From Squalus acanthias (lineage: Eukaryota): a DNA stretch of 64,000 bases. The stretch spans positions 32,552,001 to 32,616,000 of the forward strand of contig CM059432.1 of NCBI GenBank assembly GCA_030390025.1. Reading direction: 5' to 3'. Below the pieces are notes generated by a model. That model was not told the DNA's origin and ran no database searches. It saw only the letters and a list, made by a program, of their open reading frames with translations. How positions within the stretch are numbered: position 1 is the first letter of the stretch; each line of letters starts with the position of its first letter. The translations under genes and the position numbers were made by a program. Below, in pieces: positions 48,992-62,551 of this stretch.

Positions 48992-51042
48992 GGGGGAAAA
49001 CATTTGTGGCTGCCATGAGAGTCACCGGCATCTTGGGCATTTACAACAGCTAAAATGAACGAAGCGCTACCGGAGAAAAATTCACGCTGGGGCCTAAAGA
49101 TTTTTTGTATAACGCCCTCCTGGTGGTGCTTAGTGAAGGCATGAAAGTCTAAGTTCCTGTCCTAAGTGGAGTTCCAGCTTCCAACAGCCTCTGGAAGGGT
49201 GGCTATGGAGTTTGCAAGGAATTGTGGGTAATTAAAAGGGCAATACATTCAGAACTAATAAAATGAAATGAAAAATGCAGTTTTCAGCCCTTACTCCCTT
49301 AAAAAAAAAAGTCTCAAAGGGGAGTCTTCAGCACTTAAAGCTGAATTCCCTTCCGTACCTCAAAAAATGAGAAAATTGCTTCAGTAAGCCAGGGACGGGG
49401 TACCCAGGGTCTCACATACAGCATTCCAGCTTTCTCCAGGGGATCAACACTGCAAGAGAGGCCCTCCAGAAAGAAGGACGTGGGACCAGATCACTGAGGC
49501 CGTCACTGCCAGCAGTGTCGCCCCCCACCACCTGGCTCCAGTGCCCAATGAAGCTTCTTAACCTCAGACCAGTGATCAAGGTCAGTGAATGCATCTTCAA
49601 AAGCCGTCTCCTACCAACTGCACCACTAGCCTCACACACTGCTCAATGCACGACTCCACCCCCCCGCATTACTCACCTACCAACAATCTGTACCAATCAC
49701 AAGGCACACTTCTCAGTCCTAATTTCACCTCACGCCTTTGGAGGAGACGGTGCAGGCCATTCTTGGCAGGGGCATAGCTGAGCCCTTGGCCAGTGGTGGG
49801 GTAGAAAGGATACAAGATGCTGGTATCCTCATATGTTATCCTCCTTCTGGAATGCACCTCTTACTTTCCCACCCTCCCCTCACCACAATTCCACCCTTGT
49901 GCCTTCCTCATTTTACACACCAAAGAAATGCAGCCTATCTAGCCAATGATTGGCCAAGAGAGGGAGAGGAAAGTGAAGAAGAAACACCATCACTTGATTT
50001 CACACTCCCAGCCACCAGCTCCTCAAGGTTGATCTGCAAGGCCATTTCCAATGTCCCCCACAAAGTCAGCAGCTTTCCACCAGCTATGCTGCAGCCACTG
50101 GGATAGCACTGCATGACATCAGTAGAATAGGCAAAGGCACAAACAAGACAGTCACTAATGGAATGCATAGGGTGATGAGTTGATTTCTAGATGTATGAAG
50201 TTAGATTGGAAAGTGTGCTTTGTGGTGTCTTATTTCAGCATCATGGTCAAGAGGACGCTGTGATGATCAGTAATAGAGGGAAGGTAAAGTGTGGGACTAA
50301 TGTTGAAAGGAGAATTGGGGTTGTGGTCACTGTTGCTGTAGACGGATGATTCCATCCCAGATATCACAGCCAGAAAGGGGCTGTCTGGGTTGCATCCTCC
50401 CTTCTGCTTCCTCCTCTTCGGTTTCTTCCTCTTCTACGTCTACCTCTTCCCTTTGCGAGCGGATGCTGTAAATCTGAACTGACAGCATAACATACTGGAA
50501 ATAATCAGCAGGTCAGGCAGCACCTTAACCTGAGATGTGAACTCTTTCTCTCTCCATGGATGTTGCCTGACCTGCTGAGTATTTGCAGCTGTTTGTCTTC
50601 TCAGACTCCTTCCTTTACCATCTGAGGCCTTGCAAGCATCCAGCAGCACTCCCTACGCACTTAAAAAACTTTTAACATCTATTGCAGCAAGCCACTACTT
50701 TAATAAAATCAAAAAAAACCAGTCCAAAAGCTTAAATACAAACTTGTGTGAAAGATGTTTGTGTCCCTTTAAGAGGTGTTGACAGCACTTCTGTGAGTCT
50801 GCTGCATGCTGGGGTTACCTGGCGAGCTCAGGACCCAGTGCTGGACTCAGCACAAAGGTCCAAGTTCGCCATGTGTCACCACCCCCTCATTTTACTTTGC
50901 AGGGCGATACATCTTAATGGCAGCGCTGCTGAGCCTGGGAAAATGGAGGACGCCACGAGACCCGCTACCAGCTGGCGAAAGAACGGCGGCCGCCCTCTTC
51001 GCGACAATAACGGGTGGCGTAAAGCCCCTGAATTTTTAGCCC
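48992..51042. mobile_element. Degraded PIF/Harbinger-like DNA transposon
   Basis: Splits a DeuSINE; imperfect TIRs gggggaaaacattt / aatttttagccc; 3-bp TSD gat/aat; Myb/SANT-like remnant WDQITEAVTASSVAP..TWLQC..K at 49481-49580. Confidence 0.6.
50462..50600. mobile_element. Penelope-derived palindromic terminal fragment
   Basis: Inverted pair cagcaggtcaggcagca / tgcctgacctgctg, similar to the 3' end of the Penelope piece at 59850-59930. Confidence 0.55.
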
Positions 51043-51078
51043 AATCTGTTTCAGTGGTATTGGTTGAGGGATAAATAT

Positions 51079-51617
51079 TGATGGGCAATGTGTCAACATT
51101 TCTTGGAAACCACATGACTCAGACTGCAGACATTGTGACCCCAAATAAACATGTTATTTGAAACCACAGGAGACATGATGTCTCGGACCTAGATGGACAT
51201 CTTGCCATTGTTGCAAAAAGACTTTGCAACCAGCAAAAGAACTTTGCAACTCGACATGGTTGCAAAAGGACTTTGCAACCAGCAAAAGACTTTGCAACCA
51301 GCAAAAGAACTTTGCAACCAGACATGTCAATCAATTGAAACCTGCCTGCATCAGAAAGATATAAAAAGACCCTTAGCCGGACTCTCAGCACTGCAGTCGG
51401 TGGGGAAGACAGAAGACCCATCTTGGAGGACGTCCATGAAAGAATACCGCGGAACTGATCATTTCACTGCCTTGACACAAAACTCTCAAAGGAAAAGGTT
51501 ATACATATTGTTGTCTATAAAATATAAACTTTGCTTTATTTTACTGGATTGTTGTATTATACTATTTGGCTTTCTATCGCTTGGGCCCATAAATCCTGGT
51601 CCAATAGAATCACTACA
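51079..51617 (+). repeat. 5' LTR
   Basis: Starts TG(ATGG), matches 60559-60928 over ~400 bp, TATA box at 51360, ends CA just before the PBS (exact 3' end uncertain by a few bases). Confidence 0.88.
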
Positions 51618-51621
51618 GGTT

Positions 51622-51639
51622 TGACACCCAAACAAGGAC
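51622..51639 (+). promoter_or_regulatory. Primer-binding site, tRNA-Lys(UUU)-like
   Basis: TGACACCCAAACAAGGAC versus canonical TGGCGCCCGAACAGGGAC: 14/18 identical, all mismatches G>A. Confidence 0.75.
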
Positions 51640-51719
51640 CTGACAAATAGATTGCCAAAGCAGACTATCTTGTCCAGTGGTAGAACAGAAATAGGGTTTT
51701 TGGCTGGGGACATAGCAGG

Positions 51720-52700
51720 ATACTAAAATGGAAGAAGCAATGTAGAATAGAAAAGAAGTTGCCTAGGAGAGAGAAATGGTTTCCAACAGAAGAGCACCAC
51801 GTCGAACCCTTTATGGCATAGGTGGTCATGTTGAAAGAATGGCTGGCTTTGAAGAAACAAGCTGTATGGTTACTGGCCCTCAAAAAGGAAAAAGATAATA
51901 AAAGGTAAAAAAGATAAGCAAGAACTAAAAACAGAAGTTGATAACCTAAAAGCGAGTTAGAAGGAGTAAAAGAGCAATTAAAAAAGACTCTCAATGCTTA
52001 GGATAGAGTGGATCAGAATACTGAAAAATGCATCCAAACCCTAGAAGGGCATGTAGAATATTTCAGAGCCAGGCTCTGGCTAAAGAGGGAAAACTAGCTG
52101 AGTCAGGCAGCCCAAGAAGAAACATTAGATAAAATGAAAACCAAAGGAATCATTTAAAAGCGGCCGTATGGGTTCAATTGAATGCCAATAAGGAAAGCCG
52201 TAGCGGGTCAGAGGCATCACACAATCGCTATAAACATAAAATCATAAAACTAGAAAAGGCCCTACAAGTGAAATATGGAATTATCTGTACTATGAAAGGA
52301 GATAATAGTGACAGCGATTTGGACGATCAGGACTGGGATGACCTAGAGCGGGAATCTGCGGAGTATGAACATCATGACCATGGGGTGAGTGTTCCCCCCC
52401 CACCCCCTGCAATGGCCCCAAAGGAACAAATCAAGTATAATGTTGACCCCAACACCGGCCTAAGGGGAACCATAGCCAGTAGGTACGCCTTTGCCAAGAG
52501 CCCACAGAACGGGGGGGCCCTAGAGATTAACTGGTTTTACGGGGAATACCCAAACTGGAGTTGAATCCAAGCCAATTCCTACAAAGATAGGAACTAGTGA
52601 GAGTACGTGGGTGTGTGTACTTATGAATCTGCTGAATAAGAAAGGGTTGTTGGGAGCAGATATACTGGTGGGTAGGTGAAGGATTTAGCAAACAGCGCTA
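51720..52700 (+). pseudogene. gag: gag remnant (N-terminal coiled-coil and acidic/Pro-rich region; distal gag and protease apparently deleted)
   Basis: Position between the PBS and pol; heptad-like DKQELKTEVDNLK..ELEGVKEQLKK and SDSDLDDQDWDDL...PPPPPAMAP; no recognisable CCHC or DTG motif. Confidence 0.55.
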
Positions 52701-53454
52701 TTTGGCAAGCTGAGGAGATAGAGATAGAGGAACCCCATAGTAATACCCGGATATGGAGAAATCTGAGTGATCACCAAGGTACGGGGTATGATTTGGACGG
52801 AATATCACGCAATCTACCCCCAAAATACAAGAAGTGGTGAAAGAAAACGAGGTGGCGTTCGCCAAACATAAACACGGTCGTGGTAGAATGAAGGGGGTGG
52901 TTGACATGGAAGGATCCGGCCTGCCCCATCCATTAATGCAATATTGCTTCCCACGAGAAGCGAATGAGCATATTAGAAAGCTTATTGACTCACTCTTCCA
53001 GCATGGTGTTTTGCACCCAATAGTGACAAACTCACCTATTTAGCCTGTCAGAAAATCCGATGGCTCCTAGCGACTATCCATTGATTATGGACAAGTAAAT
53101 AAGGCAATGCCCTCATGCGCTCCAACGGTGACATCAGCACCGATGGTGCTCATGAGACCGACCCCAAAATCCTCTGTGTTCACGGTATTGGGCATATTAA
53201 ATGGGTTTTGGTCCATTCCCCTTAATCAGGAACACCAATACAAGTTTGCATTTATATTCCAGGACCAACAGTATACCTGGATTTGCTTACCACAGGGGTT
53301 CCACAATTCTACCTCTATTTTCCACCAACAAATGGCTAAAGCCATAATTCAATTTAGCCAGCCTGAATGCTTGATACTGCATGTAGACAATTTGCTGTTG
53401 TATACATGGAAAGTCATGTGATATTGTTAAGCGAGCTGTTACAGTTGTTAACCA

Positions 53455-53553
53455 AAAGTGAGAAGTCGCACAACACCAGGTTATAGTCCAACAGTTTTAT
53501 TTGAAATCACAAGCTTTCGGAGCTGCTGCCCCTTCGTCAGGTGAAGTGAGTAG
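53455..53553 (-). mobile_element. 99-bp Penelope-derived terminal fragment inserted in RT
   Basis: 11-bp TSD gttgttaacca (53444-53454, 53554-53564); removal restores ELLQLLTREGLKINPIKAQ. Confidence 0.8.
53508..53543 (-). ncRNA. Minimal type I hammerhead ribozyme motif
   Basis: Minus strand: CAC CUGACGA A GGGGC-AGCA-GCUCC GAAA GCUU GUG; conserved core, 5-bp stem II, palindromic AAGCUU. Confidence 0.7.
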
Positions 53554-55425
53554 GTTGTTAACCAGAGAAGGCTTAAAGATTAATCCAATAAAGGCACAGA
53601 TTGCACAAGATAAGGTAACCTTTTTGGGAGTAAATTTTAGCAAAGGAGGGAAGGGCTTTGAAATGAAGATAAAGACCGTGCAGGAGTTGCTCTTACCAAT
53701 GTCCGTTAAAGCGGTACGATAATTTTTGGAATTGGTAGTGTGTGGTCGGGATTTTACAGACAACTTGGCGACGTTAAGTGGGCCCCTGTATGGTTTATTG
53801 AAAAAGAATGTCGAGTGGGAATGGACATTAGTCGGTACAGAGACAGTTAAAACAGTTAAAGGAAGCTTTACAGAAAACACCCGTCCTAGTCCCAGCCCTT
53901 CTACATAGAAACAGCAGCCAGCGAGTACTCAATATCGGCTGTCCCAACACAAAAGACCCATGAGATATAGAGACCAGTCGCTTATGCGTCACGTGTTCTC
54001 ACCCCGCTAGACATCAATTACTCCGCGTTGAGAAACATCTATTAACAACCTTTTAGGCCATTAAGCACTTTACCTACAGTGGGATTGGCACCGCTACACT
54101 TGTTGACCAATCGTTGTTGAGTTATTGCTGGATGGAAGGTTAAAAGATGGTTCAGTGACGAATGTCCGATTGGCCTGGTGAACCATATTACTGCAGAAAA
54201 GTTATATCCAGGTATACCATAACCCTAATCCACTGAGTCTAGTGGGGAATTTGATGTACCAAGGTGAAAGACATCAGTGTAAGGTGGAAAATCAAGCCCA
54301 TCCAGAGGGACTGACTAAGTCAGGAGTGTAGCCTGACACATGAGATATATATGTAGACGGGTCAAGCAAAATGAAAGATGAAGAAAAACAGGATGCAGTG
54401 TATTCGATCCTGATGGATAAACAGAACTAGCACATATGTCTGCTCAAGCGGCCGAGTTGGTATGTAGCGTATGTGGTAATACATCCCAGAGTTTCCGATC
54501 CCTTATACAATACAGTTAGACTCCATGTATGTCAGAATTCCCTAACAGAATATCTCCCAATATGGGAAAAGAGGGGGTTTATCTCGGCAGACGGGAAAGC
54601 TTTACCCTCCACTCCAATTTTACGGGTAATTTTTAATAAGGCAAAGGAAATGCCCGGAGACAGAGCAGTCCATAAAGTCAGGGAAAACACCAAAAACAAA
54701 TCTCTGCGGGAGGGGAAACGGAAAGCCGATGAATGGGCCAAGAAAGAAGGTGAAGAGTGAATGGATTAGGCTCCGGTAGAATTGTTTCCCCCAATGGAAG
54801 CCAATCAACCCGTGACAGTACCTGACCCAATTGATCCGAAACAATTGCAACATGGAGATCCTGAAATAAAAGCAGTAATAGCGGCATTAGAAAGGAAAGA
54901 AAATCCACATGGAAAATATGCTAATAAACCAAAATTGGAGGTGAAAGATGGAATCTTATTGTACGACCAAAAATGGGTGGTACCTCAGAACCAGAGGAAT
55001 GCTTTTCTCTATGCAACTACCTCGGGACATCCTCCACTCCAATTTTACAGGTAATTTATAATAAGGCAGAGGAAGTGCCTGGAGACATAGCAGTCCATAA
55101 AGTAAGTTCTGCGGTACCACCCTTGGAAAGACTCCTGGCTTGGTGGGCAGGAATACGAGGCTAAGTGGAGCACTACTGCCACAACTGTCTAATGTGTGTG
55201 CAACATAATCCCGATGTAAATACCAAAAAAGCACTGTTGCGCCACACACGGCAGACAACAGGGCCATGGACCAATTTACAAATAGATTCTATTAGATCGT
55301 TTCCCCCATCCTCAAGAGGAAATATGTATGTATTGGTGATAGTGGACAGCTTCTCCAAGTGGGTGGAGACATTCCCAAACCCCAATGCAACGGCGTAATC
55401 CACAGTAAAGATACTGGTGAACCAT

Positions 55426-56126
55426 GGGCCGTAATTTGCGACCCCTAAGGGCGTGTATGGGGTTTGTAAACGCCCGTAAGGGCCGTGCAAGTTCCGGGTT
55501 TAGGCATGCACTGCGCATAAACCCGGAACTTGCGATCTGTCAAGAATTCTCTTGACAGATCATCTGCATCCCCGGGAAAAAGGCATCTGTGGGCGGAGAG
55601 TTGGGCTAAAGGCCTGCTTTTACCAGCGTAAGAGTTTTAAAAAACAGCAAAATTAAATTTTAGCAATAATTTATACATTTAAAACTTGTTAAATAAAGTA
55701 AATTTATTTTTAGCCCCTCTAAAACATGTACATTTATTTTTTAAACATTTTTTTGTTTTAAATATTTAATTAAATGCCATTTTAATTAATTTTAAATATG
55801 TGATGGTTTTAAAAAAATATTTATTTGATGTCTAGGTGTATTTTTGGGGGTATTCCCATTCATACTTATGGGGTTTCTGTACATACGGAATCCCGATTAG
55901 AATGAATGGGGATTCTCTTCTGTCATTCGTTAGTCTGGCCCACGTGATCCCAGGGACGCTCGCGAACCGCCTGCACCCCGGGATACGTGGGCATCTTCCT
56001 GCGGGTACCCGGAGAGCCCCAGGACCGCGAGTCTCTGTATCTCCCAGACCATCAGGTAGGCGTGGATTTTATTTGCGGATCGCAGGCATTTCCCCGCGGG
56101 AAGCCTCCAACCGCAAATTCAGGGCC
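55426..56126. mobile_element. Harbinger-like MITE inserted in the integrase core
   Basis: TIRs gggccgtaatttgcg / cgcaaattcagggcc; 3-bp TSD cat/tat; AT-rich centre; removal restores KILVNH-VFTRWGLP. Confidence 0.8.
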
Positions 56127-56688
56127 TATGTATTTACCAGATGGGGTCTCCCAAAATCCACTGACTCGGTTCAGGGAAGCCATTTCACTGGAAAGATTAT
56201 GCAAACCGCAATGCAGCTGCTAGGAATCAAAGCGCGATTCCATATTTCACACAATCCTACATCATCAGGTATAGTTGACAGGATAAACCTCACATTGAAA
56301 ACAATGCTAAAGAAACTGATTGGACAATCCTGTTGGACATGGGATCAATTGCTAGCCTTGTCATTAATGGCCATGAGGTCTAGTGAGTCACATTCCACTA
56401 AGATCTCGCCTCATGAATTAATGACCGGGAGGGTTATGAGAACATCTGAACATTTAATGTACCAGGATATGTCTGAACCCCAATACCAGGCCCTGAACCA
56501 GGAATGGTATGTTAACCAGTTACATGACCAATTACAACAAATAATGATCTTTGTCGCCGCCAATATTGGTCAGTCTAAAAGGGCCAATAAAATGTATTTT
56601 GATACAACGGTTAAGGTAATAGAAAGGGATGTGGGGCAGACAGTCATGGTAAAAATATATCAATAGACTAATTTTGCTGGACCATATC

Positions 56689-56812
56689 CAATGTTCTCCC
56701 TAATTTTTTTGGGTGCACGGTCCCTTTAGCGCGCTGCACGGCCCATTCAAAGTTTTGCACATGCACGAAACTTCACATTCGAAAAGCCAGCCCGGGCTGC
56801 GCGGACTAGCAG
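56689..56812. mobile_element. Short hAT-like insertion in the integrase C-terminus
   Basis: 8-bp duplication accatatc/accgtatc; starts caatgttctccctaa; removal restores GPYPVAVKASPSVYKV. Right TIR not evident. Confidence 0.55.
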
Positions 56813-57480
56813 ACCGTATCCCGTTGCTGTTAAGGCTAGTCCATCTGTTTATAAGGTCGCCCTCCGGAAGGGGAAGGAAAAGTAGCTCCATATAACCCAG
56901 CTGAAGGAATATAAGGGAGGCATCATAGGTATGGTGGACATGATGGATGACACCCCCAGAATCGGACCCATCATGTGGGACAATGAAGGGATGGTGTTGC
57001 CTCCAGCTCGGGTACACCATGGTAGGGGGACAAAAGCTATGGATTTGAGACCACGACCAAACCCCACACTTCAGATTTTCAACAGTCTCAGATGGGCTAG
57101 AAAAAGGCGTAGACCTAGATAAGATATTAACCAAGAACAGCCACTACCTGATGTGTTTTTCCTTTTGCAGTATTCGGCTGATCTGCAGGAACAAAATGAA
57201 GATATTGTGGTGGTGGATTGTATGCGTTATTCTTATCATGTGTAATGTAGTGGGAATGATTGGAAATGTGTCTTGACTGTCTATACATCTACTTTCCTTA
57301 ATGGGATAACATGGGAAATACCCTTAGGAAATAAGGAAACAATTCTGTTAAAATACAGGAGCAAGAGAGTGTGCATTTAACCTGTTAATGCAGGGAGAGT
57401 GGACTGACTACGAAATTGGGATAGTATCGAAAACCATTATAGACTTGCCTCCAAACACAAAATAATTTATTTCCTGTGGG

Positions 57481-58610
57481 ACATAGTCATAATGGCACAG
57501 GTGGCCGCCATTCAGCCCATCGAGTCCGTGCCAGCTCTCTGTAGAGCAATCCAGTCAGTCCCATTCCCCCGCAAGTTTATTTCCCTCAAGTGCCTATCCA
57601 GTCTCCCCTTGAAAACATTGAGTGTCTCCGCTTCCACCGGCAGCGAGTTCCAGGTCCTCACCACTCGCTGCGTAAAAACGTTTTTCCTCACGTTCCCCCT
57701 GTATCTCTTGCCCAAAACCTTAAATCTGTGTCCCCTAGTCCTTGTACCATCAACTAGTGGGAACAGCCTTTCCCCGTCTAGCCTATCCAAACCCGTCATA
57801 ATCTTGTACACCTCTATCAAATCACCCTGCAACCTCCTTTGCTCTAATGAAAACAAATCCAGCTTCTCCAACCTGTCCTTGTAGCTAAGATCCCCCAACC
57901 CCAGAACCATTCTGGTAAATCTCCTCTGCACCCTCTCAAGTGCCTTCACATCCTTCCTAAATAGTGGTGACCAGAACTGGACACAATACTCGAGTTGTGG
58001 CCTGACCAGCACTTTATAAAGGTTCAGCATAACTTCTCACTTTTGTACTCAATACCTCTATTTATGAAGCCCAAGATCCCATATGCTTTGCTAACCACTC
58101 TCTCAATATGTCCCGCTACCTTCAGGGACTTAAGCACATTAACTCCCAGGTCCCTCTGTCCCTGCACACTCTTTAAAACTGTGCCATTAAGTGTATATTG
58201 CCTCTCCCTGTTCCTTCTGCCAAAATGCATCCCCTCATACGTCTCTGTATTAAATTCCATCTGCCACTTGTCTGCTCATTCTGCTAGCCTTTCTATGTCC
58301 TGTTGCAGTCGATTGGTATCATCATCACTGTTTGCCACACCCCCAAGTTTGGTGTCATCGGCAAATTTAGAAATTCTACTCTGTATTCCAATATCCAGGT
58401 CATTTATATATATCAAAAAAAGCAGTGACCCCAGCACTGACCCTTGGGGAACACCACTGTCTACCATCCTCCAGTCTGAAAAACAGCCATTTACCACAAC
58501 TCGCTGTTTTCTGTCCTTAAGCCAATTCCTTATCCAAGCTGCCACTGACCCACCTATTCCATGAGCCTCAATTTTGTTAACCAGCCTTCTATGTGGTACT
58601 TTGTCAAACG
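57481..58610 (-). mobile_element. 5'-truncated CR1 LINE inserted in env
   Basis: [27 protein letters not shown] and RPQLEYCVQFW; same subfamily as 45771-47958. Confidence 0.9.
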
Positions 58611-59298
58611 GGGGAAACCACATAGAGTAGACGAACCCCAGAAAGGAGAGTTTGTTCTCCCTGTCAGATATGGTAGACGGAATGAAAACTCTTGGGAAAA
58701 AGATTAGTGATATTATCATGGAACATAATAGAGAAATCACCTCTTACAAGGTGTTAAAGGCCATCACGTGCCATGTAAGGGGGATTTATGTTAAATCAAA
58801 TACAAAAAGGGTTAAATGACATTGAAAATAACCAGGATACCTAATTTTGTCACTAAAGAGAACATCGACAAATGGTATCAGGGCACAGAGAGGCTAGGGT
58901 CAATTAATGTAAGGTTAGAAGATATGGAGCTGTTTACTAAGTTAAGCAAGAGTGTGGAAATAGGGATACAGGATGGGGATTAATACCTGTCATGCTATGG
59001 TTGCCACACATTAGATAGCAGCAAAAAAGTTTTTAAGGTTGAGTCCATTGGTACCCTCGAAGTGAAGGCACATAAACAATATCCCCGTACCATAGTAAAA
59101 CATCAGGAAACATGGAGGGCCCCTGATCTAACTTCTTGTATTAAACAAGCAGAATCTTGGATAGGTAGATGTGATGGTACTAACCCAGGAGTATTGGCCT
59201 GTGGGTTTAATCTGGATGACCCCTCCCTGTCCTGTACAATACAACTCCAGCGGTGGAATGACCACCAGGTGTAGAGCACCTACTTAGAAAAGGGAAAG

Positions 59299-59935
59299 AG
59301 TGACCGATTTGCGGAACACCTCCGTTCAGTCCGTAAGGGTGACCTCGAGCTTCCGGTCGCCTGTCACGTTAATTCTCCGCTCCACTCCCACTCTGACCTC
59401 TCCGTCCTCGGCCTCTTACACTTTTCCAATGAAGCTCAACGTAAGCTCGAGGAACAGCACCTCATCTTTCGATTAGGCACTTTACAGCCTTCTGGACTCA
59501 ACATCGAGTTCAACAATTTCAGACCATAACCTCGGCCCCTATGTTTTTTTCATTTTTTTTCTCTCTCTCACATGGCAGCTGTCGATCATTCTGCCATTGC
59601 CACTTACACTTCATCTAGAGCCATCTTTTGTTTCTTAACTTGTCCCATTACCATCTCCTTTTGCTTTGCACCATCATCCCTTTTGTCTCATCTCTCCTGC
59701 CTTCCATCCGATCACAGACCTTCCCTTTTGTTCTTTCCTCCCCTCCCCCCTTTCACTGCCCCTACCACTTGCTTAAAAACTTGTTCCATCTCCAACTTTT
59801 TCTAGTTCTGACGAAGGGTCATCGACCTGAAACGTTAACCCTGTTTCTCTCTCCACAGATGCTGCCTGACCTGCTGGGCATTTCCAGCATTTTCTGTTAT
59901 TTCAGATTTCTAGCATCCGCAGTATTTTGCTTTTG
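59299..59935 (+). mobile_element. Penelope-like element 3' fragment (GIY-YIG C-terminus and 3' UTR) inserted in env
   Basis: DRFAEHLRSV...LPVACH..RKLEEQHLIFRLGTLQPSGLNIEF; 14-bp TSD tagaaaagggaaag (59285-59298, 59936-59949); removal restores STYLEKGKYCLSSTSE. Confidence 0.88.
59805..59839 (+). ncRNA. Minimal type I hammerhead ribozyme motif
   Basis: GUU CUGACGA A GGGUC-AUC-GACCU GAAA CGUU AAC; conserved core, stem II, palindromic AACGUU. Confidence 0.7.
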
Positions 59936-60548
59936 TAGAAAAGGGAAAGTATTGTTTGAGCTCCACCAGTGAGACGTATCAACATGGCAAGAGCCAATGT
60001 CTGGTTATGTATCCTACCTTTTGCTTCACCGCGACAGAGGTGACACAGGTAGGAAACCAAGTTGTGCTCCCTGTTGCTGCCCATAATGTAACACTTAAAC
60101 AGATCAACATGACCATACTCCAGGCTGAGGCCCTGCAAGCGGTTGTTCTGTTTGACATCCCACACCCCTTTATCTTTAACCTACAAGCTGTGATGACCAG
60201 AATCAGTACCTCACAGAAACACCTTGATACAATGTTACAACAAAACCGCCAAATTGAAAAAGGGATCCAAACCGGGTGATCAGGAGTGGTGGGAGGTAGT
60301 GTATAACACAGGGCAACATCCTTGGGTTATAATGATATCTATGTTAATTGTAATTGTGCAAATTATACTGGTGGTTGTTTTGATTATTATGATATGTTGT
60401 ATTAAGCAAACTTTAAAAAAGCATGTTAAGGAGTTGTGTATTTTTGAAATTCTCCAGGAAAACGCGAAGCTTGAACGCTAAGTGTTAACTTTAGAGTAAC
60501 ATATGTCTTGGCAAAAGTGAATCAGTCAGAAGCTCCGAAGACTCACTT

Positions 60549-60558
60549 GAGGAGGAAC
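60549..60558 (+). promoter_or_regulatory. Polypurine tract
   Basis: gaggaggaac immediately before the TG of the 3' LTR. Confidence 0.7.
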
Positions 60559-60928
60559 TGATGGATAATATATCAACATTTCTTGGAAACCATGTGACTC
60601 AGACTGCAGACATTGTGACCCCAAATAAACATGTTATTTGGGACCACAGGAGACAATGATGTCTCAGACCTAGATGGACATGTTGCCATTGTTACAAAAA
60701 GACCAGCAAAAGAACTTTGCAACCAGACCTGTTGCAAAGAGTTTGCAACCAGACATGTCGATCAATTGATGCCTGACTGCATCAGAAAGATATAACAAGA
60801 TCCTTATCTGGACTCTCAGGACAGTAGTCTGTGGGGAAGGCAGACCCATCTCGGAGGACGTCCAAGAAAGGGCTCAAGCGCCGCAGAACTGATCACTCCA
60901 CTGCCTTGACACGGAACTCTCAAAGGAA
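60559..60928 (+). repeat. 3' LTR, truncated at its 3' end
   Basis: Aligns to the 5' LTR up to ...aactctcaaaggaa, then similarity stops abruptly. Confidence 0.88.
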
Positions 60929-61414
60929 GTATGAAATGTTTGGGATTTTCTGGCATACACTCCAAAAACTGATATATTAACTCGGATAAGGAGTGTCCAA
61001 AAGTGGCAGCAGATGGGAGGGCCGGCGGAGAGCACAATCTTTTCAAAGAAAGTTCAAGCATGATAACCTTCGTATAGAAACCTGCTTACAAAAAAGAACG
61101 GAGTTATTTAAATGTAGAAGTAAATAAAAAACATGCAGTAATGAAAAGATTGAAATTGGATTCCAAGTCTTCATATCAAGTATATCCAGCCAGCTTGCCC
61201 CTGTCTGTTTAAAACCTTTTTAAGTGGTGAGGGATTCAAACCAGGATCTGCTGGTTCAAAACCCAACACCTAACCACTGGACCACACAAGACCTCATAAC
61301 TATGCTTTCTTCAGTCTTCTTACAACCTACGGCTTTCAAGAAACAAGTTTTGTGTCAATGTCTTGACTTCTCATCTCATTTCTGCTACTCTTTTCAATTG
61401 TGCTGTTCTACTTA

Positions 61415-61950
61415 GAATTATAGAATCTTACAGCGCAGAAGGGGCCATTCGGCCCATTGCACTTGTGCCGGCTCTTTGAAAGAGCTGTCTAATTTAGTCC
61501 CACACCCCAGCTTTTTCCTCATAACCCTGCAAATTATTTCTCCTCAAATACATGTCCAATTGCTTTTTGGAAGTTCCTATGGAATCTGATTCCACCACCC
61601 TTATGGTAGTGCGTTCCAGATCATAACAACCCTCTGTATGGAAAAAAAATCTGTTCATTTCCCCTCTAGTCCTTTTGCCAATTATTTGAAATTTATGACC
61701 TCTGGTTACCAGCCCACTTGCCAAAGGAAACAGTTTCTCCCTACTTGCTCTATCAAAACCCCTCATAATGTTATACCTCTATTAGGTTTCCTCTTAACAT
61801 TCTCTGCTCTAAGGAGAACAATCCCACCTTCTCCAATCTCTCCATATAATTGAAGTCCCTCATTCTTGGTTTCATCCTGGTAAACCTCCTCTGGACCCTC
61901 TCCAAGGCCTTGACATCCTTGCTAAAGTGTGGTGCCCAGAATTGTACACA
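61415..61950 (-). mobile_element. CR1 LINE 3' fragment
   Basis: MRGFDRASREKLFPL...TRGHKFQI; CR1-type tail at the left end. Confidence 0.8.
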
Positions 61951-62551
61951 ATCATCTTCAATCTAAGAGAGGGGGAGTGGGACTAATTGTTTAGCTCTTT
62001 CAAAGAGCCGGCCAGGCACAATGGGCCGAATGGCCTCCTTCTCTGCTGTAAGATTCTACGATTCACCCTCCAGACCTTATGCTCTTAACTCAGGTCTATT
62101 CGTGCTTGTCCAAAACTGGCTGCACGAGAACAGTACAGGGAGTCTTTTCTTCTAACATTCCCTTTTGTGGCCTGCACTTGATGTTAGGCAGTGTGGCGGA
62201 GATTAACTTATCATATTGCGGATCACTCTCATCGGTTAAGAAGATTGCACTCTTCACTCAGGTCCCAGATGCCCCGTTGCCCTCGTCACGCCGTTGTCAG
62301 CTTGCACTTTCAGCAAGTTATGGCAAAAAAAAGGTCTGATCTGAAGGGTGCAGGACAAAGTCTAACTAATGACTTACGCCGTGAGATGCCCCATTCTAGC
62401 AAGATCCTTCTCACTCCTCCTCCCACCCATGCCTCAACATTTTAGGGCTCCGACATTCTGTGTTTCTGAATAAAAACTGTAACTTTTCATATTACTGGAA
62501 ATTGTGGGTAAAATTAATGCATAAACCAGCCACTCAACGTAACAGTGACAT

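Follow-up and report, generated by a model that had tools for sequence, protein, structure and literature searches.

The stretch of Squalus acanthias DNA considered here (the window; 64,000 nucleotides, C8:32552001-32616000 of the 3.7-Gb genome) holds at positions 51079-60928 an endogenous retrovirus (ERV) whose gag, protease, reverse transcriptase (RT), integrase and env pieces, together with two ribonuclease H (RNase H)-like domains, all lie on the + strand and carry stops and frameshifts. This element is probably an old, dead provirus that is neither a Ty3/gypsy element nor a lokiretrovirus, and that descends from a deep-branching lineage basal to the canonical retroviruses, a placement carried by the RT phylogeny. 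The window copy itself is likely a fossil without function. Its features, in order along the stretch, are the following.

51079-51617, +, 5' long terminal repeat (LTR; TG...CA), from the repeat match up to 51494 and from other LTR copies for the rest
51622-51639, +, primer-binding site (PBS) of the tRNA-Lys(UUU) type, decayed
51640-52466, +, leader and gag remnant, stop-ridden, with an internal deletion between ~52343 and ~52519
52467-52673, +, protease remnant, C-terminal part only (tblastn to residues 14-76 of the frog Pol protein P0001 and residues 49-112 of the Pol of the young relative)
52774-53824, +, RT in two frames, broken by the insertion at 53452-53549 (Pfam RVT_1, E 1.1e-10)
53452-53549, unstranded, insertion 1, a ~98-bp dispersed element (genome copies 93-100% identical)
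53890-54111, +, first RNase H-like (tether) domain (PF17919, E 3.5e-7; PF17917, E 2.8e-6; tblastn)
54317-54760, +, second (acquired) RNase H, frameshifted, with 4 stops (tblastn to the young-family RNase H, E 3e-20)
54770-55425, +, integrase zinc-binding region and first half of the core (tblastn; Pfam rve, weak, E 0.003)
55426-56129, unstranded, insertion 2, a 704-bp dispersed non-coding repeat (copies 79-88% identical, those of full length 79-83%; 9133 first-look candidates)
56130-56969, +, second half of the integrase core and C-terminal domain (tblastn to P0001 residues 971-1158 and young-family Pol residues 1004-1247)
57148-57481, +, putative env start, proposed from a hydrophobic signal-like stretch at 57196-57240 in translation (no similarity found)
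57482-58610, -, insertion 3, a 5'-truncated long interspersed nuclear element (LINE) fragment (Pfam RVT_1, E 8.5e-13; genome copies 92-96% identical)
58611-59298, +, middle part of env (heptad region, F-like core domains) with stops and frameshifts (tblastn to residues 376-556 of Chiloscyllium P0019, E 4e-18, and to frog P0026)
59299-59928, unstranded, insertion 4, a 630-bp dispersed repeat (copies 90-94% identical; 7255 first-look candidates)
59929-60481, +, C-terminal part of env (domain II-like region, membrane-proximal heptad, transmembrane segment and short tail), by similarity to the env of relatives
60549-60558, +, polypurine tract (PPT) GAGGAGGAAC, directly abutting the 3' LTR
60559-60928, +, 3' LTR, truncated before the AATAAA-like region and U5 (repeat match, alignment of LTR copies)

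The paired LTRs proposed in an earlier, sequence-only reading of this DNA are confirmed by direct repeats, 51079-51494 versus 60559-60928, that align in five gap-free blocks at 87-94% identity. In an alignment with five further LTR copies from the family, four (L002, L004, L007 and L008) are homologous beyond 51494, as is the 5' LTR of a provirus on C11 (L005), and the homology stops at a conserved ...CCTACA that corresponds to window position 51617. Because the true LTR runs to 51617, as these other copies show, the 3' LTR, which ends at 60928, is truncated, its final ~123 bp being gone; the missing end was not found in the 6 kb downstream, and the target-site duplication is therefore not readable. 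The U3 of the 5' LTR bears a TATA-like GATATAAAAAG at 51358, with an AATAAA-like region near 51516, and contains extra tandem copies of a ~19-nt unit (AAAAGACTTTGCAACCAGC) at 51216-51326, about two more than are present in the 3' LTR (60689-60731) or in other copies of the family. The window 3' LTR and an independent LTR copy (L006; C3:18485780-18485982) lose homology at the identical point, after ...CTCAAAGGAA, just 5' of the AATAAA-like region, and this shared endpoint may represent a recurrent breakpoint or a short LTR variant.

The Lys-type PBS and the PPT of the sequence-only reading also stand. The PBS starts four bases past the end of the LTR and is complementary at 14 of 18 bases to the 3' end, with CCA, of the host tRNA-Lys(UUU), for which a gene is present at L114 83-156 (3' end GTCCCTGTTCGGGCG); the corresponding site in the C11 sister copy is complementary at 15 of 18. 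Two other loci with the tRNA-Lys 3' end pattern were rejected as the source, there being no tRNA gene at either. The tRNA-Lys(UUU)-type 3' ends occur in a tandem array at C29:11697240-11721402 with a period of ~1.78 kb, one unit of which is confirmed as a tRNA-Lys(UUU) gene.

Between the LTRs, every coding segment is interrupted by stops, 1 to 8 in each of ten segments for which they were counted (single-frame counts, with some segments partly out of frame). The gag N-terminal region holds 10 stops within 51665-52132, and the internal deletion has removed the part of gag for the C-terminal capsid domain and nucleocapsid; this part is present in the C4 sister copy, which has ~1.6 kb more between the equivalents of window positions ~52343 and ~52519, the extra stretch resembling residues 442-570 of the young-family Gag. 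The RT, 49% identical to both the frog Pol P0001 and the young shark family, retains the three motifs previously picked out, NGFWSIPL at 53200-53223, YTWICLPQGFHNS at 53272-53310 and, with its YVDD box decayed to HVDN, HVDNLL at 53380-53397. Two consecutive RNase H-like domains are indeed present, the tether being identified by Pfam and by the motifs FYIETAAS (53899) and RPVAYASR (53971), and the second domain by tblastn and by the motifs IYVDGSS (54347), SAQAAEL (54439) and WEKRGF (54563) spread over two frames. Because the TDAS box of the Ty3-type tether consensus here reads TAAS, the catalytic Asp of the tether has been lost.

The integrase bears its GPY motif at 56679-56687, as had been reported, and a separate env is substantiated by coding pieces with a transmembrane segment. 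The detectable env of the window is the counterpart of residues ~349-739 of the bamboo-shark homologue, the first ~350 residues' worth being undetectable in the window, and its C-terminal piece is 32% identical to the young-family env (E 1e-14) and 41% identical to P0019. Pfam searches with the window gag, second RNase H, integrase C-terminus and env pieces gave nothing usable. The element had been described as reconstructable, a description that fails on its mostly lost gag, partial protease and env, cut 3' LTR and stops; the window copy is more damaged than first described and alone cannot yield a complete element.

The insertions anticipated by the sequence-only reading are borne out as four dispersed-repeat insertions and one internal duplication, in which the 76-nt end of RNase H (54606-54681) recurs within the integrase zinc region at 55031-55106. 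The 704-bp repeat sits exactly between the residues equivalent to 1003 and 1004 of the relative's Pol, and the 630-bp repeat splits the env alignment at P0019 residue ~550-556. This latter repeat matches no Pfam family, and a comparison of 50500-62500 with Rfam at E up to 0.1 gave no match either, from which it follows that no hammerhead is recognized in it. It carries an 84-codon open reading frame (ORF) fragment that presumably resembles a Penelope-like C-terminal endonuclease, Pfam and Rfam having given nothing, and its tail motif recurs upstream of the provirus at 50542-50599 (81% shared). The ~98-bp element in RT is found in dozens of copies genome-wide, several as adjacent inverted pairs, and looks like a very recently active miniature element.

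The family to which the window copy belongs is low-copy and old. About ten further internal fragments at 68-83% identity occur in the genome, along with solo or partial LTRs, and no intact member was seen among these copies, which were examined from short loci. The Kimura two-parameter distance between the two LTRs of the window copy is 0.131 over 363 aligned bases, equivalent to ~30 million years at a mammalian rate and to ~300 million years at the slow elephant-shark rate (PMC4422223).

A second family in the same genome is abundant and very young, with open gag, pol and env. A genome search with the frog Pol P0001 gave 27,063 first-look candidates and 35 scored matches at 42% identity, 31 of which are free of stops; three copies were inspected with their flanks, and the family is used here solely as an intact comparator. 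Its copies are ~12.8 kb long, with LTRs of 1650-1689 bp that show 1 to 6 differences between the members of a pair (six in the 1689-bp pair). The gag is open for 643 codons (602 from the first Met) and encodes one CCHC knuckle (two copies), an in-frame TGA lies between gag and pol (two copies), pol is open for 1495 codons (~1500 in all three copies), the env ORF spans 836 codons (one copy), and the target duplication is 4 bp, CCTG (one copy). The domain order of Pol, read in a fourth copy (L022), is protease, RT, RT_RNaseH, RNase_H, Integrase_H2C2, rve and an SH3/GPY end. The PBS of the young family, TGGCGACCGCGGCAGGAC, lies five bases past the 5' LTR (L035/L037) and differs from the Lys(UUU) site of the window copy. 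One young copy on C19 (L035 and L036) has 158 identical bases outside both LTRs, and another on C2 (L039 and L040) has a 4.4-kb stretch of LTR and gag repeated 11 kb apart at 99.9% identity; these odd flanks suggest tandem or recombinant arrays.

The RT phylogeny was inferred from 62 rows and 263 columns (IQ-TREE, LG+C20+F+G4) and rooted on ten Ty3/gypsy rows, with 13 redundant rows of the first 68-row set omitted and broken sequences read through with X at the breaks. Reference viruses were taken from IMG/VR alignment scans and labelled by Pfam matches on gag and env as gamma (Gag_p30, TLV_coat), foamy (Gag_spuma, Foamy_virus_ENV) or delta (Gag_p19, Tax), and were joined by three fish/amphibian-type reference genomes of 10,688, 10,305 and 10,207 bp; an IMG/VR scan with a single Pol protein was discarded, none of its six matched stretches being relatives. 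Two proteins stand for the lokiretroviruses, P0193 (European sea bass) and P0194, in both of which the strings of RT and RNase H are nearly letter for letter those of the published consensus.

In this tree the window element groups with two sister copies (support 99/97), this group is joined by the young family and P0002 (100/95), and all of these fall within a 13-row clade (96/94) that includes Pol proteins of frogs and the coelacanth annotated as 'NYNRIN-like'. The Ty3/gypsy rows and the two lokiretroviruses are split from the other 50 rows, the window element among them, at 100/98. The ten Ty3/gypsy rows form a 100/100 clade and the class I and delta rows a 99/96 clade, each excluding the window element. 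In the earlier 68-row tree, which was without lokiretroviruses, all canonical references form a 100/99 clade, and the lineage lies outside it as a grade. In approximately unbiased (AU) tests, a topology constrained to unite the lineage with the lokiretroviruses was rejected (log-likelihood difference 17.9, p 0.00345), and one constrained to unite it with the foamy viruses was not rejected (log-likelihood difference 5.8, p 0.235). The lokiretrovirus placement favoured by the sequence-only reading is thus contradicted by both the 100/98 split and the AU test; its separate expectation, that RT would lie outside gamma/epsilon, foamy and Ty3/gypsy clades, stood, and extends to delta, in a tree without walleye RT.

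The second RNase H gives a different grouping. In an unrooted tree of 45 rows and 138 columns, from which three of the five foamy loci, all three delta loci and the turtle protein were absent (no match to the query), a 98/97 split separates the lineage, the two lokiretroviruses and two foamy loci (17 rows) from the gamma/epsilon-type sequences and the 10,688-bp virus (28 rows). This agrees with the 'group I' RNase H described in the literature, which comprises lokiretroviruses and foamy viruses (PMC7947760). The element is accordingly a dual-RNase H, env-bearing, non-gamma retrovirus, as had been proposed, since it is not nested in gamma/epsilon and its RNase H falls on the lokiretrovirus/foamy side.

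The env of the lineage was approached through the intact env of the young family, which has 51 relatives among 1.84 billion representative proteins; ten of these were looked up, and the eight that bear names come from skate, sawshark, houndshark, bamboo shark and three frogs. At the level of sequence, the paramyxovirus-type fusion family PF00523 gave no match at E up to 10 in the five window env pieces and the intact env, nor at E up to 0.1 in 20 of the 51 homologues, and the foamy family PF03408 matched none of the window pieces, the intact env or 20 of the 51 relatives. PDB sequences searched with the intact env, and again with a profile of 32 env rows, likewise yielded no fusion protein. 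The fold is more informative. An AlphaFold model of residues 270-836 of the young-family env, built from the 32-row alignment, has a mean predicted local distance difference test score of 73.9, and the Foldseek matches to the PDB listed in ranks 1-50, additional chains of an entry already listed being left aside, are all paramyxovirus or pneumovirus F proteins (best E 1.8e-11, probability 1.00). Compared with BFVD, the model resembles glycoproteins of arli-, lispi- and chu-like viruses, baculovirus F and paramyxovirus F0, and it also matches the predicted Envs of two walleye viruses (WEHV-1, E 1.1e-9; WDSV, E 1.7e-7) and gp130 of feline foamy virus (E 2.3e-4). On the strength of this model, an F-like env appears real for the lineage but not specific to lokiretroviruses: it is not diagnostic because foamy Env is itself F-like in solved structures (PMC11468914) and because the model also matches foamy and walleye Envs. 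In the young-family env (L036 516-3023), about 55 codons, if translation begins at the first ATG, lie ahead of a hydrophobic signal-like segment, a lead reminiscent of the foamy Env leader peptide, and an immunoglobulin (Ig)-like region lies 5' of the F-like core (weak Pfam Ig_3 match, E 0.34).

The lineage so delineated comprises the window family, the young shark family, the env relatives in skates, sawshark, houndshark and bamboo shark, and the 'NYNRIN-like' Pol proteins of frogs and the coelacanth. At about an even chance, its most likely identity is with the published 'foamy-like ERVs' of shark and frog (CmiFLERV/XtrFLERV), which are known from pol alone. XtrFLERV of Xenopus tropicalis is reported to cluster with the elephant-shark CmiFLERVs, pol being the only gene detected in either host in the published account (PMC5512871). 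The two groups share hosts, namely cartilaginous fish and Xenopus tropicalis, and a basal position among foamy-like and canonical retroviruses; recognition by pol alone with foamy probes fits a lineage whose gag and env match no Pfam family, and a Lys-type PBS, as in most foamy viruses, is common to both (PMC5512871). The intact relative differs in its CCHC knuckle and its in-frame gag-TGA-pol, which are not foamy traits, on a comparison by description only, and a clade of the lineage with mammalian foamy viruses is neither favoured nor contradicted by the RT tree. Should the lineage correspond to this pol-only group, the gag and env that are wanting there are provided by the present genome, together with many recent copies.

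Several observations weigh against this placement and identification. The base of the 50-row group is a polytomy of the 13-row clade, the 10,688-bp virus, a minnow pair, a long-branched turtle protein and the other 33 rows, and those 33 rows (foamy, class I and delta) are held together by a branch supported at 90/53 only. The two lokiretrovirus references are near-identical, and the tree holds no Odin, lenti-, alpha-, beta-, ERV-L or walleye RT. The RNase H tree carries a long-branch warning, as the long branches of foamy viruses and lokiretroviruses meet there, and the F-like fold was modelled on a relative 32% identical to the window piece rather than on the window's own broken env. Neither Foamy_virus_ENV (PF03408) nor Gag_spuma (PF03276, PF20672) is matched by the intact relative or the window, whereas the foamy references that were scanned did match; the intact relative also has a CCHC knuckle and keeps gag and pol in one frame, unlike orthodox foamy viruses, and gag and pol overlap in the foamy reference loci. 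The identification with CmiFLERV/XtrFLERV, finally, is drawn from host pattern and tree position because the comparison was with published descriptions rather than sequences.

A possible but less favoured alternative is that the element represents an undescribed major retroviral lineage, placed either as the sister group of the canonical Retroviridae or at their very base, and distinct from the published foamy-like ERVs. The position outside the 100/99 clade of canonical references in the first tree and the separate 96/94 clade within the basal polytomy of the second would both suit such a lineage, as would the coelacanth member P0076, which differs by eye from the published coelacanth foamy-like RT, and a combination of features not found in the literature examined, which was a limited search. 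Set against this are the same limited extent of that search, the AU test that does not reject a clade with foamy viruses, and the basal frog and shark 'foamy-like' pol lineage already in print, whose host pattern fits (PMC5512871). Were the lineage indeed undescribed, its dozens of open copies with near-identical LTRs would point to an infectious retrovirus, past or present, in cartilaginous fishes, and the order of RNase H swap and env capture at the origin of retroviruses would become directly testable. It may also be suggested, tentatively, that the lineage stands between the lokiretroviruses and the canonical Retroviridae, combining an RT of canonical type, an RNase H of lokiretrovirus/foamy type and a class Ib env with an N-terminal Ig-like head.

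An endogenous lokiretrovirus, which would be the first from a cartilaginous fish, is an improbable reading of the element. The proposal draws on the dual RNase H, the grouping of the second RNase H with those of lokiretroviruses and foamy viruses, the F-like env fold of the intact relative, and an integrase that in the relatives carries an H2C2 zinc domain (PF17921 with PF00665) under the NCBI name NYNRIN-like. CGIN1 is presumably the same gene as NYNRIN. The lokiretrovirus integrase has been reported as closest to CGIN1 (PMC7947760). An H2C2 integrase and aquatic and amphibian hosts are also common to lokiretroviruses and the lineage. Most of these traits carry little discriminating weight: a dual RNase H is not diagnostic because it is common to all retroviruses, PF17917 and PF17919 also match the three fish/amphibian-type reference viruses and are listed for class I ERV proteins, and a Ty3-like tether and an F-like env do not discriminate among deep retroviral lineages. 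It is the RT tree, rather than these characters common to several deep lineages, that diagnoses lokiretroviruses, which are themselves defined by RT phylogeny (PMC7947760), and there the lineage lies across the 100/98 split.

The motifs of Pol point the same way. The published lokiretrovirus consensus reads GFWT.., PFGY.NSPAEF, YVDDIL, VDGCSF and SQYAEI (PMC7947760), and the window and its relatives carry NGFWS, LPQGFHNS, YVDDLL (HVDNLL in the window), VDGSS and SAQ.AEL, so that LPQGF stands against PFGY and YVDDLL against YVDDIL. These are motifs of canonical-retrovirus type, and the lokiretrovirus interpretation once placed on them does not survive; none of six lineage motifs occurs in the searched part of the supplement that holds the consensus of 24 lokiretroviruses (PMC7947760). 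The lineage env differs further in its want of a PF00523 sequence signal, which was sought in the window env pieces and in 21 whole proteins (the intact env and the 20 homologues). None of the six cartilaginous-fish genomes screened for lokiretroviruses in 2020 was positive according to the supplement of the same work (PMC7947760), and in a literature search of limited extent for lokiretroviruses and sharks, the mention found concerned ray-finned and jawless fish only. The broader intuition of the sequence-only reading nevertheless holds, namely that the element is a non-gamma retrovirus of deep origin, with an F-type envelope, close to the base of foamy viruses and lokiretroviruses.

An ordinary class I (gamma/epsilon-like) ERV with a drifted RT is still less credible. 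The LPQGFHNS and YVDDLL-like motifs, the gamma-like spacing before YVDD and the gag-pol read-through are all of that kind, and among solved structures the RT-RNase H of the relative scores best with the RT of murine leukaemia virus and xenotropic murine leukaemia virus-related virus (237 bits), followed by foamy protease-RT (224 and 206), Ty3 (147) and HIV (~60). The lineage is nonetheless nested within class I in neither tree, being left out of the class I and delta clade, its RNase H lies across the 98/97 split from the gamma/epsilon type, and no Gag_p30, MLVIN_C or TLV_coat match was obtained in Pfam. A Ty3/gypsy (Metaviridae) element is rejected by the position outside the 100/100 Ty3 clade and by the presence of a second RNase H.

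Returning to the deep-branching lineage favoured here, its likeness to individual known retroviruses is partial in each case. With foamy viruses it shares the NGFW and LPQGF motifs of RT, the RNase H group, the tRNA-Lys PBS (in the window family), the long LTRs and ~12.8-kb genome of the young relative and, by its model, the F-like class Ib env fold (PMC11468914). It departs from them in a receptor-binding head that would be N-terminal, not between the two Env subunits, as well as in its Gag and Env families, CCHC knuckle and gag-stop-pol in one frame. The nearest reference virus genome found is the 10,688-bp IMGVR_UViG_638276818 (L046/L097), which may be one of the fish retroviruses, for example the snakehead or the salmon swim-bladder virus. 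Its Pol is 33% identical over 785 residues, and NGFWSI, LPQGFH, an H2C2 integrase domain, an in-frame gag-stop-pol and a gag and env without a Pfam family are common to both; it differs in having no supported join to the lineage in the RT tree, in an RNase H on the gamma/epsilon side, and in an env whose similarity to the shark env is not significant (E 0.08-0.12).

Among described ERVs, ERV-Spuma.0-Sca of the small-spotted catshark likewise occurs in a shark in many copies (293 elements); it has paired LTRs, three ORFs and a gag without recognizable domain, and has been classed as foamy-like (PMC10699275). It is reported to cluster with foamy-like ERVs of ray-finned fish, not with those of frogs, a difference established by description only (PMC10699275). 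The crocodilian and turtle ERV4 is described as having no GPY/F, no gag zinc finger and a 5-bp target duplication (PMC4299795) and is rejected on that description, as the window has a GPY motif and the relative a CCHC knuckle and a 4-bp duplication. Ovex1, described as without a zinc finger and with a degenerate GPY (PMC2717909), is rejected on the same basis.

The life cycle of the lineage can be outlined from features read in the intact relatives and extended by inference to the window copy, as is its mode of expression. Transcription would start in the LTR, tRNA-Lys(UUU) would prime minus-strand DNA in the window family, and the PPT would prime the plus strand. A Gag with one CCHC knuckle would be produced, along with Gag-Pol by read-through of the in-frame TGA, the predicted Pol comprising protease, RT, a degenerate RNase H (tether), an acquired RNase H and an integrase with HHCC, DDE and GPY motifs, and integration would generate a 4-bp target duplication. 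In the predicted Env, a paramyxovirus-F-like (class Ib) fusion core is held by one C-terminal transmembrane anchor, the head is N-terminal and Ig-like, and there is a furin-type site. Through its gene losses, four transposon insertions and stops, the window copy is capable of none of these functions. An F-type env in a basal lineage fits the view that this fusogen is old in retroviruses.

Four predicted proteins (P0013, P0014, P0017 and P0046) join pieces of the env to domains of host genes: P0013, from sawshark, is named Niban-like, and the host domains in P0014, P0017 and P0046 are of the C2H2 zinc-finger, cadherin and F-box types. Chimeric annotation or exonisation of env fragments may explain them, and the F-box fusion protein has a weak Baculo_F match (E 0.0011).

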